64,000 nt of DNA, taken from the IMG/VR virus record IMGVR_UViG_3300045253_000023, positions 64,001 through 128,000 of that record; one strand, written 5' to 3'. The notes beneath the pieces were generated by a model that made no database searches, was not told where the DNA came from, and saw only the letters and a program-made list of their open reading frames with translations. Positions 13,591 through 35,231 of the stretch are shown here, piece after piece. Both the position numbers and the translations under genes were made by a program. Source of the DNA: a virus. The stretch's first letter is position 1. Each line of letters begins with the position of its first letter.

Positions 13591-14610
13591 ATGAAAACCA
13601 GGCAGCCATCAACAGCACCAAAGACCAAGAAGTTGGTCAACAATGTGATCTTCGTCATTGATTCATCGTCCTCCATGGACCGTCACGCTCGTGCCGTCAA
13701 TCAAGTGATCAATGATCTCATCAAACCGCTTTCTGCAACAGGCTATGCCAATCAGCAGACGCGAGTATCCCTCTACACATTCAATGATCTGGTAACCAAG
13801 CACAAGTTCTTGGTTGATCCAGTCTATCTCCAGAATTTCTCCCTCATTCCTCAAGGTTACACTGCCTTGATCGATGCCACATACACTGCGATCGCAGAAC
13901 ACCAGATTCTGGAACGTTCTGACTATGAAGACAATACCTTCTTGCTCTATGTGATCACAGATGGTGAAGAGAATCGTTCGCGTCACAATGCTGCACAACT
14001 GCGCCAGTTGTTTGCTGGATTGAATGATTCATGGACACTGGCAACAATGGTTCCAAATCAGACTGCTGTGCATCACGCTAAGAACTTCGGTTTCCCTGCT
14101 GGCAACATTGAAGTTTGGGACATCTCTTCTGATCATGGTTTTGAGGAAGTCGGTCGCACTGTTTCGCGCTCGTATTCTGACTACACCAATCTGCGTTCAC
14201 AGGGAATTCGTTCCTCCTCCAATTTGTTTCATGTGAATGCCAACAACATTTCAACACAGGCTGCGAAAGCCAATCTGCAAGAAGACTACACAGCCAAGTT
14301 GTATCCTGTGAACTTCACAGGTCAGATTCGCGAAGTGGTTGAAAGTGTCACTGGACGCCCATACATCCTTGGCGATGCGTTCTATGAACTCATGAAAAAG
14401 GAAACAGTGCAGCCGCAGAAAGAGATTGCCATTGTTCACAAGCGCGATGGCAAGAAGTATTTCGGCCGCAATGCACGCATCATGCTGGGTCTCCCGCAGA
14501 CGCCTGTCAAGGTGATCCCTGGTGACTTCGGTGATTGGCGCCTGTTTGTTCAGTCAACATCTGTCAATCGCAAGGTCGTTCCTGGAACTGCGCTGCTGAT
14601 TCGATCATAA
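13591..14610 (+). CDS. vWA-domain protein
   Basis: MIDAS motif DSSSSM, TALIDA, ITDGEEN. Confidence 0.85.
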   Translation: MKTRQPSTAPKTKKLVNNVIFVIDSSSSMDRHARAVNQVINDLIKPLSATGYANQQTRVSLYTFNDLVTKHKFLVDPVYLQNFSLIPQGYTALIDATYTAIAEHQILERSDYEDNTFLLYVITDGEENRSRHNAAQLRQLFAGLNDSWTLATMVPNQTAVHHAKNFGFPAGNIEVWDISSDHGFEEVGRTVSRSYSDYTNLRSQGIRSSSNLFHVNANNISTQAAKANLQEDYTAKLYPVNFTGQIREVVESVTGRPYILGDAFYELMKKETVQPQKEIAIVHKRDGKKYFGRNARIMLGLPQTPVKVIPGDFGDWRLFVQSTSVNRKVVPGTALLIRS

Positions 14611-17601: not shown

Positions 17602-17684
17602 GCGCCAATAGTCGAGGGTGCCTTCTAAGCATTCATCCGTAACTGGAACTGAAAATGCGGGTTCGAATCCTGCTTGGTGCTCCA
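17602..17684 (+). tRNA. tRNA-Arg(UCU)-like, rearranged arms
   Basis: Acceptor, anticodon and T arms intact; no D arm at the normal place. Confidence 0.65.
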
Positions 17685-17772
17685 AAAGATACAATGTGTC
17701 ATTGCCAATGAGCTCTCTTGTTGCTGGGACAAGGGATGACGACAATGCCACAAAGGCCCAGCAAGAATTTAT

Positions 17773-17847
17773 GGGTTAGTCGTCTAACGGCAAGATAGCA
17801 GCTTCCAACACTGCCTGATGAGGGTTCGAATCCTTCCTAGCCCGCCA
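17773..17847 (+). tRNA. tRNA-Trp(CCA)
   Basis: TTCCAAC loop, GCCA. Confidence 0.75.
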
Positions 17848-18080
17848 ATTTATGTCTCATTGCGAAAGCTGAATTCTGGTGAATCGATGCCAGGAGATTC
17901 CCTTCAATGGGGAGATGGGACACGCCTATATGACAAACGAAGAAGCAATCGCAGCCAAGAGCGCGGAAGTTGAACATTACATTGGTGTCCTCAGCCGATA
18001 TGGAAGAGGGAGATGGTATGACATGGGTTGTCGTCATCTTGCTGAACTCCGTGAAGAGTTGAAGGCGCTACAAGATCAAT

Positions 18081-18155
18081 GGCTAGGTGACAGAAAGGTT
18101 ATGTGACGGCCTGCAAAACCGATACATGCTGGTTCGAATCCAGTCCTAGCTTCCA
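18081..18155 (+). tRNA. tRNA-Cys(GCA)
   Basis: CTGCAAA loop, U73. Confidence 0.88.
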
Positions 18156-18179
18156 AATTCGACTATGTACCAACACAAT

Positions 18180-18257
18180 GCACCTATCTTCTAACTGGTC
18201 TAGGAACTCTGACTTTCAATCAGAACAATGTGGGTTCGAATCCCATTAGGTGTACCA
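18180..18257 (+). tRNA. tRNA-Glu(UUC)
   Basis: tctga-CTTTCAA-tcaga. Confidence 0.9.
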
Positions 18258-18266
18258 AATTCAAAT

Positions 18267-18340
18267 GCGTCCGTAACTTAATGTAGAGGATCACCCTGTC
18301 ACGGTGGAAGGTGCGAGTTCAAGTCTCGTCGGGCGCGCCA
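18267..18340 (+). tRNA. tRNA-Asp(GUC)
   Basis: CTGTCAC loop, GCCA. Confidence 0.85.
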
Positions 18341-18348
18341 AGTTTTAT

Positions 18349-18423
18349 GGAGCCGTAAGCATCTGGTGAGGCTGCCGAGCTGTCTACTCGGTGAGGTGGG
18401 TTCGACTCCCATCGGTTCCGCCA
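18349..18423 (+). tRNA. tRNA-Asp(GUC), U37 variant
   Basis: ccgag-CTGTCTA-ctcgg. Confidence 0.85.
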
Positions 18424-18624
18424 AATTGAAATTGGGTTACAATGGTGAGATAGGTCGCGCCTATTTCTGTTGTATCCTGTATTTCCGCGCAGTGCCCATC
18501 CTCGCGTTATAAGATCGACGGCACGAATATCGCTGGAGCGTAAATGTTGTCGTCGTTGGCAATCTACACTCAAGCAGGTTCCCGATTCAAAGGGATTAAA
18601 GCCAGGTTGGCGCCAATTTTACAT

Positions 18625-18696
18625 GGGGTGTCCGCAGGGGCGGAGACTGCACTTGCAATGCGATCGCGATGGGTTCGAGTCCCATACATTCCACCA
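18625..18696 (+). tRNA. tRNA-Ala(UGC), short D arm
   Basis: CTTGCAA loop, G3:U70. Confidence 0.8.
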
Positions 18697-18704
18697 ATTC
18701 AAAT

Positions 18705-18785
18705 GCCGTAGTAACCCGCGTGTCTACGAAACACGACTCAGGTAACTGGAGGAAGATGCAGGTTCGAATCCTGTCTGCGGCTCCA
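18705..18785 (+). tRNA. tRNA-Arg(ACG)-like, rearranged arms
   Basis: cgtgt-CTACGAA-acacg close after the acceptor stem; T arm; TCCA. Confidence 0.65.
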
Positions 18786-19428: not shown

Positions 19429-19480
19429 TTCACAAAGAGGCAAAATGTCCACATTGGGTTCGGCAAACAAAACAGAACCA

Positions 19481-19948
19481 GTGACATTGAAGGAATTCAT
19501 CCTCACCGAATCCTTTGAACCAGTGTCCATTCCATATGGCTTTGACTTCAAAATGAGAAACGGCAGATGGGATCATCTGGGTGGGTTTGATTACACTTTC
19601 TTCACTCTTGATGGTCTGTACTACATGGTGACATTGAAGAAGCCAAGTGGAATTGTTTCCTTTGGTACTTCAGATGAAAACACCACAGACCCAGGCTTGT
19701 ATGATCAAACACCATATCAAGCCAAAGATGCGCTACATGTTTTCAATAGCGTGATCTATGTTGCACTCCAAGGCGCCAAGAATCTCGGTTACACAAGACT
19801 CAGATTTGACGCAGCGAGCCGCGCCTTGGGTCGAGTATATGACGCAATGGTTCGCAACAAATTCTTGATCGACAAACTTGCTGGATATGGTTGGAAGTAT
19901 CTTGGCAAAGATGATGACAACAATCATATGTTTGGTCGATCCAAATAG
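19481..19948 (+). CDS. Hypothetical protein, probably head-packaged
   Basis: GTG start gives MTLKEFILTE. Confidence 0.55.
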   Translation: MTLKEFILTESFEPVSIPYGFDFKMRNGRWDHLGGFDYTFFTLDGLYYMVTLKKPSGIVSFGTSDENTTDPGLYDQTPYQAKDALHVFNSVIYVALQGAKNLGYTRLRFDAASRALGRVYDAMVRNKFLIDKLAGYGWKYLGKDDDNNHMFGRSK

Positions 19949-19954
19949 TTCAAT

Positions 19955-20030
19955 GCCCCTGTGACGGAACGGCATACGTGTCAGTCTCAAAAGCTGAATT
20001 TTGTGGGTTCGACTCCCACTTGGGGTACCA
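19955..20030 (+). tRNA. tRNA-Leu(CAA), short variable arm
   Basis: CTCAAAA loop. Confidence 0.85.
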
Positions 20031-21008: not shown

Positions 21009-21085
21009 GCACCTGTGATGTAACTGGTAAACGTGTTGGACTCAGAATCCAAATTGTGTGAGTTCGAATCTCACCAGGTGCACCA
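21009..21085 (+). tRNA. tRNA-Leu(CAG), short variable arm
   Basis: ttgga-CTCAGAA-tccaa. Confidence 0.88.
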
Positions 21086-24593: not shown

Positions 24594-24670
24594 GCGTCTG
24601 TAGCTTAACTGGACAGAGACTCTGGCTTCGAACCAGAGGGGTGTGGGTTCGACTCCTGCCAGGCGCGCCA
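24594..24670 (+). tRNA. tRNA-Arg(UCG)
   Basis: tctgg-CTTCGAA-ccaga. Confidence 0.88.
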
Positions 24671-25374: not shown

Positions 25375-25821
25375 ATGAAAGATCAAGCACTGTTGCTCGG
25401 AGAGATGATTGCTCTTGCGGCAATGGGTCACAAAGATCAGCTGGATCGTGGTGGTGCCGCATACTTCCTGCATCCGCTGCGTATTCTGTTTCGCCTGCGC
25501 ACTCGTGACAATGAGTTGATGCAAATGGCAGCAGGACATGATCTAGTGGAAGATTCAAACATCACTCTGGATCACTTGCGCGCCCTTGGATTTTCTGAGC
25601 GTGTGATTGCTGGTCTGGACTGTCTGACGCACCGTGAAGGTGAGTCATATGACGCCTACATAGATCGCATTGCAACCAATCCGGACGCAGTGCGTATCAA
25701 ACTTGAAGACCTGCGAGATAATTCTGACATCACTCGAATGAAAGGTGTCCGAGACAAAGATGTTGAACGTCTCAAGAAGTATTTCCTGGCGTTCCAGAAA
25801 TTATCTGCTCTTGTAGTGTAA
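25375..25821 (+). CDS. HD-domain (p)ppGpp hydrolase-like protein (Mesh1/SAH type)
   Basis: H.DQ.DRGG..Y..HP, HDLVED, IKLEDL.DN. Confidence 0.85.
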   Translation: MKDQALLLGEMIALAAMGHKDQLDRGGAAYFLHPLRILFRLRTRDNELMQMAAGHDLVEDSNITLDHLRALGFSERVIAGLDCLTHREGESYDAYIDRIATNPDAVRIKLEDLRDNSDITRMKGVRDKDVERLKKYFLAFQKLSALVV

Positions 25822-25901
25822 CTGGATAGCACCGACGGCCTTATACACCGTGCGCAGCCGATTACTGCCGAGCCTGAGTTCGATTCTCAGCAAGAGCACC
25901 A
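25807..25901 (+). tRNA. tRNA-Ile(UAU) with long variable arm
   Basis: CTTATAC loop; gcag/ctgc variable arm; ACCA. Confidence 0.75.
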
Positions 25902-26825: not shown

Positions 26826-27004
26826 GGAATGCCTACAGCCTATATCCGCATTTGAAGCCGAAGGTCGTGTGGTTCGATTCCCACCTGCTCCACAAGAGTG
26901 ATTTGCTCCAGTGTCATTGTCTTTCTCCAATAGTTAGCAAAATCACAGCAGATCACTCTTTTGGGGCAGTAGCTCAGTGGTAGAGCAGCGTAATGCGCAT
27001 TCCG
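26826..27004 (+). ncRNA. CAGC-handle RNA 8 (YrlA-like permuted tRNA module)
   Basis: ggaatgc/gcattcc stem; T arm, extended closed acceptor stem, canonical D arm. Confidence 0.8.
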
Positions 27005-27069: not shown

Positions 27070-28476
27070 ATGAACGCACTTTTGAATGCAATGAACCAGA
27101 CTGGTCGTACTGCGAATGGCGCAGCAACCAACTTGTCTTCGCAGTCGGCTGTTGTCGATTTGTTCTTCCTTGCTGGCGCATCACGCGGCAAAGATATCAC
27201 CAAGGCATTTGAACGTGCACTTGGCGAGAATGAAGACCTGGCAATCCGTATTCTCTTGTGGCTTCGTGATGCTCGCGAGGGTGCAGGTGAGCGTGATCAG
27301 TTCCGCAACCTGTTGAAGTATCTTGTGTCCACTGGACGCAAGGAACTCGCAGAGCGTGTGCTTGCACGTACTCCATTCCTCGGTCGTTGGGACGACGTCG
27401 TTGAGTTCCTCAATGGTGAGCTGTACCCAACTGCTGTTCGCTTGATTGAAGGCGCACTCGAGAAGCAGGACGGATTGTGCGCAAAGTGGATGCCACGTAA
27501 GGGTCTGCTTGCTGTTACATTGCGTCAGGCATTGAATCTTTCGCCAAAGCGATACCGCAAGACATTGGTCAACCTGTCCAACACTGTTGAGCAGGCAATG
27601 TGTTCTGGTGATTGGAACGACATCAACTTCTCGCATGTTCCATCGGTTGCTGCTGCGCGTTACCAGAAGGCGTTCACTCGTCATGATGGTGAGCGTTACA
27701 GTGCATATCGTGAAGAGTTGAAGAAGGCACCAGCTGATCGTGACCCAAAGGTCAAGATCAACGCAAAGGCAATCTTCCCATATGACATCGTCAAGTCTGT
27801 TCGCAGCGGCGATCGTGATGTGGCTTCAGCCCAGTGGTTGGCACTGCCAAACTTCTTGGAAGGTAGCGATGAGCGTCTGATTGTTGTCGCAGACGTTTCT
27901 GGTTCGATGAGTTCACCTGTCTCGCAGGGAACAACTGCAATGGATGTTTGTATCTCCCTGGCAATGTATCTCGCAGAGAGACTCGAAGGTCCATTCAAGG
28001 ACACATTCATCACGTTCTCGCAGCGTCCAGTGTTGCAGCGTCTGAAGGGACCATTGTACTCGCGTATTGAGCAGTTGAACAAGGCTCAGTGGGACATGGA
28101 CACCAATTTCGAGGCAGTGTTCAATCTGATTCTGAAGGCAGCGGTCGACAATGACGTTCCTCAGAGTGAGATGCCAACAAAGATTCTGGCGATCTCCGAC
28201 ATGGAGTTCAACGCATGCGGTGGATCACGCGTCAACTCGACACTGTATGACGCAATCAGCAAGAAGTACGCTTTGGCTGGTTACGAAATGCCAGGAATTG
28301 TGTTCTGGACTGTCAATGCTCGTGAGGGCAATAACCCAGTTACAATCCGTGACGCTAACACAGCGTTGGTGTCTGGTTTCTCGCCAGCGATCGTCAAGAG
28401 CGTTCTTGGTGGTAAGGACATGTCCCCAATCTCAGTGGTCCTCAAGACAGTGGGTGTGGATCGTTACAACTACTAA
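27070..28476 (+). CDS. DUF2828-family TROVE/Ro60-like protein with C-terminal vWA domain
   Basis: T.NGA, LRDAREGAGER, GRWDD, AKWMPR, VPS.A, DVSGSM, TNFEAVF, ISDMEF, IVFW, VSGFSP. Confidence 0.88.
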   Translation: MNALLNAMNQTGRTANGAATNLSSQSAVVDLFFLAGASRGKDITKAFERALGENEDLAIRILLWLRDAREGAGERDQFRNLLKYLVSTGRKELAERVLARTPFLGRWDDVVEFLNGELYPTAVRLIEGALEKQDGLCAKWMPRKGLLAVTLRQALNLSPKRYRKTLVNLSNTVEQAMCSGDWNDINFSHVPSVAAARYQKAFTRHDGERYSAYREELKKAPADRDPKVKINAKAIFPYDIVKSVRSGDRDVASAQWLALPNFLEGSDERLIVVADVSGSMSSPVSQGTTAMDVCISLAMYLAERLEGPFKDTFITFSQRPVLQRLKGPLYSRIEQLNKAQWDMDTNFEAVFNLILKAAVDNDVPQSEMPTKILAISDMEFNACGGSRVNSTLYDAISKKYALAGYEMPGIVFWTVNAREGNNPVTIRDANTALVSGFSPAIVKSVLGGKDMSPISVVLKTVGVDRYNY

Positions 28477-30234: not shown

Positions 30235-30307
30235 GCCCTTGCCAATAGGAATGGTGGTTGCCTCCTAAGCAACCGAGATGTGAGTTCGAGTCTCACCAAG
30301 GGCACCA
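30235..30307 (+). tRNA. tRNA-Arg(CCU), reduced D arm
   Basis: gttgc-CTCCTAA-gcaac. Confidence 0.8.
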
Positions 30308-30311
30308 ACAA

Positions 30312-30527
30312 ATTCAAGTTCCGAGCTATCGCGGGCAGTAACTCCTGTCTGAGGAAGTTCAGGACTGGCGCAAGGGACGTGTGGAAGATGGTACGGAACA
30401 TCGTTAACACCACCGTGATGATAGCCAGCAAGCCAAACAGAACTAGGGAATCTCTTGCCTATTGGTTCGGGTGGGTGCATAGTCGAATGATAGCATAAAA
30501 CAGAATCCTGGCTACGGGAACTTGAAT
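30312..30527 (+). ncRNA. rnpB: Minimal RNase P RNA
   Basis: P1, P2, P3, P4 with bulged U; GAGGAAGUUCAGGA, AGCAAG, GAAUGAUAGC, ACAGAAUCCUGGCUA. Confidence 0.85.
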
Positions 30528-32349: not shown

Positions 32350-32438
32350 GGAAGATGATCTGCTCTGGGAGCAGCCTTGTCTTGAAAACAAGTGGAACCA
32401 GCAATGGTTTGCAGTTCGATTCTAGCCTTCTTCCTCCA
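32350..32438 (+). tRNA. tRNA-Ser(UGA), irregular
   Basis: cttgt-CTTGAAA-acaag. Confidence 0.78.
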
Positions 32439-35153: not shown

Positions 35154-35231
35154 GCGCCAGTAGTCCAATTGGTAGGAGACAACAGGCTTAGACCCTGAAC
35201 AGTGTCGGTTCGAATCCGACTTGGCGTACCA
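35154..35231 (+). tRNA. tRNA-Leu(UAG), short variable arm
   Basis: cagg-CTTAGAC-cctg. Confidence 0.88.

Follow-up and report, generated by a model that had tools for sequence, protein, structure and literature searches.

In a normal tRNA, the chain runs from the acceptor strand through positions 8-9, the 5′ strand of the D stem, the D loop, the 3′ strand of the D stem and position 26 to the anticodon arm, and from there through the variable loop to the T arm. This cloverleaf arm order is regarded as universal outside organelles: in a 2024 paper, every known tRNA of bacteria is said to take the cloverleaf form (PMC11551756), and a 2020 review of non-canonical tRNAs found in nature has no phage example. 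Here we analyze two tRNA-Arg genes with a different internal order of segments, at 17602-17684 (anticodon UCU) and 18705-18785 (anticodon ACG), both on the + strand of a 64,000-nt stretch of viral DNA (the window). The window comprises bases 64001-128000 of the complete 161,561-bp virus record IMGVR_UViG_3300045253_000023, which has direct terminal repeats and 47% G+C. Judging from sequence and covariation, both genes probably specify working elongator tRNAs for arginine that are wired in a different order and charged by the arginyl-tRNA synthetase (ArgRS) of the host. They belong to a family, hereafter termed rewired, whose members are tRNAs by every feature except the defining arm order.

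The closest described systems each share some of these peculiarities. Animal mitochondrial tRNA-Ser(AGY/GCU) also joins its acceptor and anticodon arms by a short connector in place of a D hairpin, but it has lost the D loop along with the elbow contact between D and T loops and does not form the usual L (PMC9427863; reviewed in PMC7609411). In contrast, the rewired tRNAs, which come from bacterial phages, keep the D-loop motif with its G18 and G19 and a covarying D stem, in a reconnected form. The circularly permuted tRNA genes of Cyanidioschyzon and other algae (PMC3978253) likewise encode tRNA segments in a non-canonical order; however, their 3′ half lies before the 5′ half and processing restores a normal cloverleaf, whereas the rewired genes have their acceptor strands in normal order at the gene ends and their internal swap would persist in the mature RNA. 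The allo-tRNAs and tRNA-Sec with 8/4 or 9/3 acceptor/T branches (PMC5389517) are natural non-canonical forms of bacteria and their phages that were also found by sequence mining, but in these the helix lengths are altered and the four-arm order is kept. A full-text search of the literature recovered no published description of the rewired family.

Segment order of the two rewired genes

With canonical bacterial and phage tRNA-Arg, such as E. coli tRNA-Arg(ICG) and the phage's own tRNA-Arg(UCG) (24594-24670, +), the two genes share the 7-bp acceptor stem, the T arm, the CUACGAA or CUUCUAA anticodon loop, the encoded CCA, U8, A9 and the motif A14 A15 Y U G18 G19 A20. The difference lies in the D-stem 5′ strand and the D loop, which precede the anticodon arm in the canonical molecules and come after it in the rewired ones; moreover, the rewired D stem, as we draw it, encloses the anticodon arm to give a three-way junction without any D hairpin. 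The canonical tRNA-Arg(UCG) gene, which is called by ARAGORN, scores 51.9 bits against Rfam and complements the rewired genes in its anticodon, provides the reference for the D loop. Its D loop is AACUGGACA (AACUGGA), and because the shared motif of the rewired genes equals it, that motif can be numbered U13 A14 A15 Y16 U17 G18 G19 A20. By the same reading of the sequence, the bases before the motif are 10-12, the connector after U8 A9 is 22-26, and the order of segments is 1-9, 22-48, 10-21 and 49-76. U8, A14, G18 and G19 are all present, though relocated.

The 17602-17684 gene represents the version with an 8-nt 5′ connector, which we call subtype B. Its acceptor 5′ strand (17602-17608) pairs with 17674-17680 in 7 bp that include one G-U, and is completed by U73 at 17681 and the encoded CCA at 17682-17684. 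The 5′ connector UAGUCGAG (17609-17616) supplies U8, A9, two extra bases, the 23-25 strand of the D stem and position 26. It leads into an anticodon arm of 5 bp with the loop CUUCUAA (17617-17633; UCU at 17624-17626), after which a linker standing in for the variable loop and the D-stem 10-12 strand (CCG) occupy 17634-17639. The transposed D-loop motif UAACUGGA (17640-17647) reads U13 A14 A15 C16 U17 G18 G19 A20. The strand from the D loop to the T stem (17648-17656) pairs with the connector through its first 3 nt and ends in a U that is the candidate position 48, partner of A15; the T arm GCGGG-UUCGAAU-CCUGC follows at 17657-17673. The D stem is made up of C17613:G17639 and G17614:C17638, and beyond the bulged D loop it continues with U17612:A17648, G17611:C17649 and A17610:U17650.

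The 18705-18785 gene has a 7-nt 5′ connector (subtype A), so that both subtypes occur together in one phage. Its connector, UAACCCG (18712-18718), consists of U8, A9 and then 22-26, and is followed by the anticodon arm CGUGU-CUACGAA-ACACG (18719-18735; ACG at 18726-18728), the linker ACUC with the D-stem 10-12 strand AGG (18736-18742) and the motif UAACUGGA, again U13 to A20, at 18743-18750. The strand to the T stem, GGAAGAU (18751-18757), likewise ends in a candidate U48, the T arm GCAGG-UUCGAAU-CCUGU lies at 18758-18774, and the gene ends with U73 (18782) and the encoded CCA (18783-18785). Its long-range D stem comprises A18714:U18743, C18715:G18742 and C18716:G18741, with C18717 and A18740 mismatched.

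The acceptor and T arms that the initial annotation had described as good, and the TCCA ends that it noted, are borne out by the 7-bp acceptor stem, the standard T arm and the discriminator U73 with CCA that both genes possess; the neighbouring tRNA genes likewise encode CCA. Its estimate that the anticodon arm begins about 7 nt after the acceptor stem agrees with the 7-8 nt measured, the anticodon stem being reached 6 (17602 gene) or 5 (18705 gene) bases after U8 A9. In neither gene is there a D hairpin, i.e. 10-13/22-25 closing 14-21, between position 9 and the anticodon arm. Both anticodon arms have 5 bp and a 7-nt loop with U33, a purine at 37 and an arginine anticodon. The 23 (17602 gene) or 22 (18705 gene) nt between the anticodon and T arms contain GUAACUGGA, and the T arms conform to the consensus GCNGG-UUCGAAU-CCUGY with the T-loop sequence GGUUCGAAUCC in both. 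Standard gene finding fares poorly here: ARAGORN, run on the window, called neither gene, and the Rfam tRNA model (RF00005) yields 29.7 bits for the 17602 gene and 33.1 bits for the 18705 gene, only just exceeding the gathering score of 29. The RF00005 alignment of both has the D arm deleted (4-5 nt against the model's 15) and 19-20 nt inserted in the variable region.

We propose that the mature chain would run from the acceptor strand through U8 A9, the 22-25 strand, position 26, the anticodon arm, a short linker, the 10-12 strand and the motif to 5-9 nt ending in U48 and then to the T arm. The D stem would be kept but built around the anticodon arm, because the 5′ connector is paired to the bases directly preceding the motif. 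In enclosing the anticodon arm it would also lengthen it, and the junction would be three-way rather than four-way, with an asymmetric internal loop between the two helices in which position 26 faces the 3-5 nt that replace the variable loop. The D loop would then bridge the D stem and the T stem as unpaired sequence, either a bulge or a strand of the junction; in subtype B (the 17602 gene) it would form an 8-nt bulge in a helix of 5-6 bp. In the tertiary structure of tRNA, positions 8-9 lie beside 22-23, 44-45 beside 10 and 21 beside 48. The three new joins can be short because the positions they connect adjoin in that known structure, and with short joins an L shape with an exposed A20 appears geometrically reasonable. 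Such an L would be kept through U8-A14, A15-U48 and the contacts of G18 and G19 with the T loop, with A20 exposed at the elbow. As to origin, one simple route, which is conjectural, would start with a partial tandem duplication of 10-48 and continue with two losses.

Conservation and covariation of the long-range D stem

A strict pattern of 24 bases spanning the moved motif and the T arm matched 43 loci in viral contigs, every one of which has the same layout and an arginine anticodon, well beyond what chance would give. At least 119 loci match a second pattern that specifies just the loop of the ACG anticodon and, at its abnormal distance, the T loop. A structure-aware parser then yielded 104 distinct arginine sequences (ACG 76, UCU 22, UCG 3, CCU 3), on which we trained a covariance model, R1. 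Across viral contigs and the tRNA arrays of metagenome bins, R1 recovers 116 distinct relatives, of which 112 have the arginine anticodons ACG, UCG, UCU or CCU. The homologue search with a custom covariance model that the initial annotation had suggested thus finds the arrangement retained throughout these 116 sequences. R1 gives 81.9 bits to the 18705 gene and 66.8 to the 17602 gene. No canonical tRNA of the same genome exceeds 34.7 bits, and hence the genome contains exactly two members of the family. Both window genes show the layout by which membership can be defined, in which UA and 5-6 further nt make up a connector that pairs with the 2-3 nt directly 5′ of a UAAYUGGN motif, the motif itself lying past the anticodon arm.

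Among sequenced phages, Xanthomonas phage XacN1 carries a full family member with the anticodon ACG that is unannotated in GenBank, and BLAST finds unannotated matching stretches in two Stenotrophomonas phages and one Mesorhizobium phage, with shorter ones elsewhere in phages. Since such GenBank records leave the rewired genes unannotated, the arginine decoding capacity of phages would be under-counted; the tRNA finders that miss these genes would have an annotation blind spot. The strict pattern, run against 185,579 prokaryote species genomes, hit nine contigs, seven of them labelled Blastocatellia, all in arrays of 15-25 tRNA genes; we read these metagenome-bin hits as phage-like arrays and not as chromosomal tRNA sets. 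On the metagenome-bin contigs L139-L147, mostly labelled Blastocatellia, 15-25 tRNA genes lie within 8 kb together with a rewired tRNA-Arg(UCU), and the order of the tRNA genes is alike in several of them; these contigs may be phages, prophages or mobile tRNA arrays.

The pairing of the connector with the bases 5′ of the motif was examined with an anchored parse of the 104 sequences, in which connector bases -4 and -3 were tested against bases -1 and -2 before UAAYUGGA. The pair 23:12 is standard in 104/104 (CG 76, AU 15, UA 8, GC 5) and 24:11 in 103/104 (CG 61, GC 34, AU 5, UA 2, GU 1), against 38-63% standard pairs with register shifts of one base. In an all-against-all mutual-information scan, these two pairs rank among those of the acceptor and anticodon stems. 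A MAFFT alignment, which is not fitted to any structure, retains 23:12 in 86 and 24:11 in 100 of 103 sequences; the 17 failures at 23:12 match the UAUACCC subgroup, which MAFFT shifted by one column. In this alignment the whole structure is 92.9% paired, against 34-46% with slid partners, and none of 500 shuffles equals it. The alignment made with R1, which leans towards the model, has 23:12 in 112 and 24:11 in 115 of 116, with four to five pair types each. In the family as a whole, pairing reaches 99.5-99.7% in the acceptor stem, about 95% in the anticodon stem and 99% in the T stem; all 7 acceptor pairs and all five anticodon pairs show compensatory changes. The proposal of the initial annotation that the shared rearrangement reflects a selected alternative fold is supported by stems that covary across 116 distinct sequences of a large family. 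This record also bears on the idea that the two genes are decaying tRNA pseudogenes left by a rearrangement in one phage. The low Rfam scores and the silence of ARAGORN would suit such decay, but the family counts 116 distinct relatives, spread over many unrelated contigs, compensatory changes are seen in each of its stems, and R1 scores the two genes at 67-82 bits. The covariation across the family already contradicts decay, which we regard as extremely improbable.

The mutual-information scan also bears on how the inserted region should be drawn. The initial annotation had placed a hairpin resembling the D loop in the position of the variable arm; the location of UAACUGGA 3′ of the anticodon arm stands, whereas the local hairpin over it is unsupported, because no pair inside the 3′ region covaries. 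Taken literally, that drawing would describe a tRNA that truly lacks a D arm in the mitochondrial style, with the connector unpaired and the motif in a variable-arm hairpin. RNAfold does put a small hairpin over the motif in 18705-18785, and Rfam aligns the region as a variable-region insertion. However, apart from that lack of covarying columns, 99-100% of members show pairing between the connector and the bases 5′ of the motif, in four to five pair types, and A14, G18, G19 and A20 are kept in the motif although they would be needless in a structure without a D arm. We therefore think it very unlikely that the D arm is absent outright. The local hairpin was rejected on the covariation scan, and an intron or simple insertion in the variable region was likewise ruled out, as the inserted part pairs with the connector.

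Returning to the D stem built around the anticodon arm, further pairs extend it in parts of the family. A fourth pair, between the connector and the opening U of the motif, occurs in about one-quarter of members. In the subgroup with the 8-nt connector, which includes the 17602 gene, the connector also pairs with the three bases that follow GGA, as AGC/GCU, AAC/GUU or AGU/ACU, and the column pair 10:52 is standard in 15/15 (GC 9, AU 6). In most 7-nt members, too, the base that follows GGA tends to be paired with position 22 (column pair 12:51, 53/68). Columns 15:48 follow the pattern expected of a tertiary pair and are a candidate for one, being AU in 99, GC in 3 and otherwise in 1, with C48 in three of the five G15 cases.

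Several points weigh against the proposed architecture. With 2 firm pairs, the long-range D stem is a short helix; a third pair, 25:10, is present in only about half of the members and is absent from both window genes. The covariation at 15:48 amounts to three sequences of one subgroup, which may represent a single event, and the two other G15 members deviate. RNAfold stability is unremarkable (z = -1.16 and -0.97 for the two genes), and the minimum-energy fold of the 17602 gene differs from the proposed one. The three-dimensional argument would hold to the extent that canonical tRNA structures, on which it is based in place of a model of the rewired RNA, apply to it. Finally, the sequences behind the pair counts are related and thus non-independent, and since the loci were collected with arginine-specific patterns, the arginine share among the members is inflated.

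Identity and decoding

A20 is the strongest determinant for E. coli ArgRS, alongside C35 and G36/U36, and U73 is also listed for bacterial arginine tRNAs (PMC9976931). Both window genes and every arginine member of the family have A20, C35 and G36/U36, and the GGA that ends in A20 is invariant among the arginine members. Ten rewired relatives, recovered with R1 and a further scan, have the anticodon GAU, UAU or CAU; they keep the long-range D stem and have A73 and U20 (one has C20). U20 and A73 are listed among the bacterial isoleucine determinants (PMC9976931). These tRNAs for Ile, or for Met or Ile2, are found at L063:310-387, L063:6052-6128, L094:9034-9110, L077:692-772, L096:2803-2892 and L096:2998-3088 and on L160, L162 and L171, with A73 and motifs of the UAAUUGGU type. 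Their existence means that the rewired architecture is not confined to arginine. With A20 in the arginine members and U20 or C20 in the Ile and CAU relatives, position 20 tracks the anticodon as identity rules predict. The suggestion of the initial annotation that A20 may be presented to ArgRS from its new position gains from this pattern, in which GGA is invariant on the arginine side and GGU or GGC replaces it in the rewired Ile and CAU relatives.

We infer that the host ArgRS would charge both tRNAs through A20, C35 and G36/U36, and that the ACG species would be deaminated to ICG. Arginine codon use in the phage is CGU 28%, CGC 36%, CGA 12%, AGA 14% and AGG 7%; the rewired pair would read CGU, CGC and CGA (77%) together with AGA and AGG (20%), while the canonical UCG gene would read CGA and CGG. 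The coverage of both rewired tRNAs taken together would, by our overall estimate, be about 85% of the arginine codons of the phage. The phage's arginine set consists of the canonical UCG gene, a CCU gene at 30235-30304 (+) and the rewired UCU and ACG genes, and no ArgRS gene of the phage's own was found. Translation can accommodate altered cores, as a tRNA without a D arm is accepted by the E. coli elongation factor EF-Tu, the ribosome and the histidyl-tRNA synthetase HisRS (PMC11551756). In the family at large, the acceptor and anticodon stems have diverged freely, yet the arginine-type members carry only arginine anticodons (of four kinds) in canonical loops. The loci of the rewired genes are tRNA arrays, in which ARAGORN calls a median of 11 tRNAs, and an ARAGORN tRNA-Arg of the same locus rarely shares the anticodon of the rewired gene (9 of 132).

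The tRNA-Arg(CCU) gene at 30235-30304 is itself odd. It scores 38.9 bits with Rfam without being called by ARAGORN, and the Rfam alignment shows it to lack connector bases 8-9 and to have a D arm of a 3-bp stem with a GGAA loop. With this gene besides the two rewired ones, three of the four tRNA-Arg genes of the phage are structurally unusual.

That count might be taken to favour a conserved, tRNA-shaped molecule that does not decode: a decoy or sponge for a host nuclease or toxin that hits tRNA-Arg, an ArgRS-binding RNA, or a ligand for RNA machinery of the phage itself, namely the Ro60-like protein or the miniature RNase P nearby. An altered core is a plausible way of differing from the host tRNA-Arg; a Ro60-like gene, a sub-threshold match to a Y RNA and a miniature RNase P RNA lie in the same region; and T5-like phages have a 72-nt relative seemingly without an anticodon arm. 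Against this, the anticodon loops are canonical, with U33 and a purine at 37, and the arginine-type anticodons are all for arginine and complement the canonical arginine tRNAs of their arrays. Moreover, the acceptor stem, discriminator, CCA and T arm are all retained, and A20 or U20 follows the anticodon in the way expected for aminoacylation. We accordingly hold a purely non-decoding role to be unlikely and continue with the elongator tRNA as the preferred reading.

For such elongators, the rewiring might be adaptive and not neutral, altering the D-arm face read by some host factor but leaving intact whatever ArgRS, EF-Tu and the ribosome require. This is a tentative idea that we think rather unlikely. 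Possible candidates for this factor are a defence nuclease or toxin directed at tRNA, a modification enzyme, and the specificity domain of the host RNase P. If this were true, the phage's decoding of arginine, and in some phages of isoleucine, would survive an attack on host tRNAs or their shut-off, the processing of the rewired tRNAs would possibly fall to the phage's own miniature RNase P, and the molecules would constitute a natural L-shaped, topologically orthogonal tRNA scaffold. Whatever its cause, a widespread and maintained family of this kind would demonstrate that another strand topology can also yield the L shape, with an internal segment swapped and the D-loop identity base for the synthetase nevertheless kept. 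For the design of orthogonal tRNAs it would also be a natural scaffold, and cultured phages allow it to be tested directly.

The tRNA array and neighbouring RNA elements

By ARAGORN's count there are 37 tRNA genes and one permuted tmRNA, all of them + strand, and the proteins encoded in the window resemble those of phages, including a helicase, NAD salvage enzymes and a Ro60-like RNA-binding protein. A search of cultured phages for near-identical DNA returned none, and there is no close cultured relative. No syntenic relatives were recovered with the protein of the open reading frame (ORF) at 19445-19948; the ORF at 13591-14610 led to two contigs at 51% identity, with one ordinary tRNA-Arg(CCU) and no array.

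At 30313-30526 (+), 8 nt past a tRNA gene, lies a 214-nt element resembling RNase P RNA. It scores 46.6 bits (E 4e-12) with Rfam RNaseP_arch, under the gathering score of 84, and has the conserved core blocks GAGGAAGUUC and AUAGUCGAAU...ACAGAA, with the specificity domain almost absent. A pattern scan of viral contigs found no relatives of this miniature form. A weak match to YrlA, a Y RNA-like family, occurs at 26859-26992 (+; 24.9 bits against a gathering score of 69). Just downstream, 27070-28476 (+) encodes the Ro60-like protein, a 468-aa member of PHROG 850 ('RNA-binding protein'). This arrangement suggests a module of Ro plus Y RNA within the tRNA region.

The 72-nt element mentioned above is typified by L148:370-441 of Escherichia phage KookSpook (PP925842.1). 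Most of the 314 matching phage records contain it, these being chiefly Salmonella and Escherichia phages of about 110-125 kb, and among its carriers it is annotated as tRNA-OTHER or not at all. Its half from the motif to the T arm is about 97% identical to rewired tRNA-Arg, with GGU instead of GGA, and about 10 nt take the place of the anticodon arm; it may be a derivative that has lost that arm.

The 95-nt tRNA-Ile(UAU) gene at 25807-25901 (+) combines a normal D arm with an extra arm in the variable region that has GAU in a 7-nt loop. Comparable tRNA-Ile(UAU) genes with an extra arm occur on L161, L163, L164 and L166, and calls of Ile(tat) with 90-92 nt on L139-L147. We considered these long genes, with a second UAAUUGGU, as a duplication intermediate and dropped them, the extra arm resembling a second anticodon-type arm with GAU.

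Other tRNA-like matches in the window include 32350-32434 (+), which reaches 46.3 bits with the tRNA-Sec model (threshold 47), is not called by ARAGORN and is probably a tRNA with a long variable arm; otherwise no Ser or Tyr tRNA was found in the window. Between tRNA-Asp and the rewired ACG gene, 18625-18693 (+) gives a weak tRNA-like match of 20 bits. The three tRNA-Leu genes at 19955-20030 (CAA), 21009-21085 (CAG) and 35154-35231 (UAG), all on the + strand, are only 76-78 nt in length and hence are without the long variable arm of bacterial tRNA-Leu.

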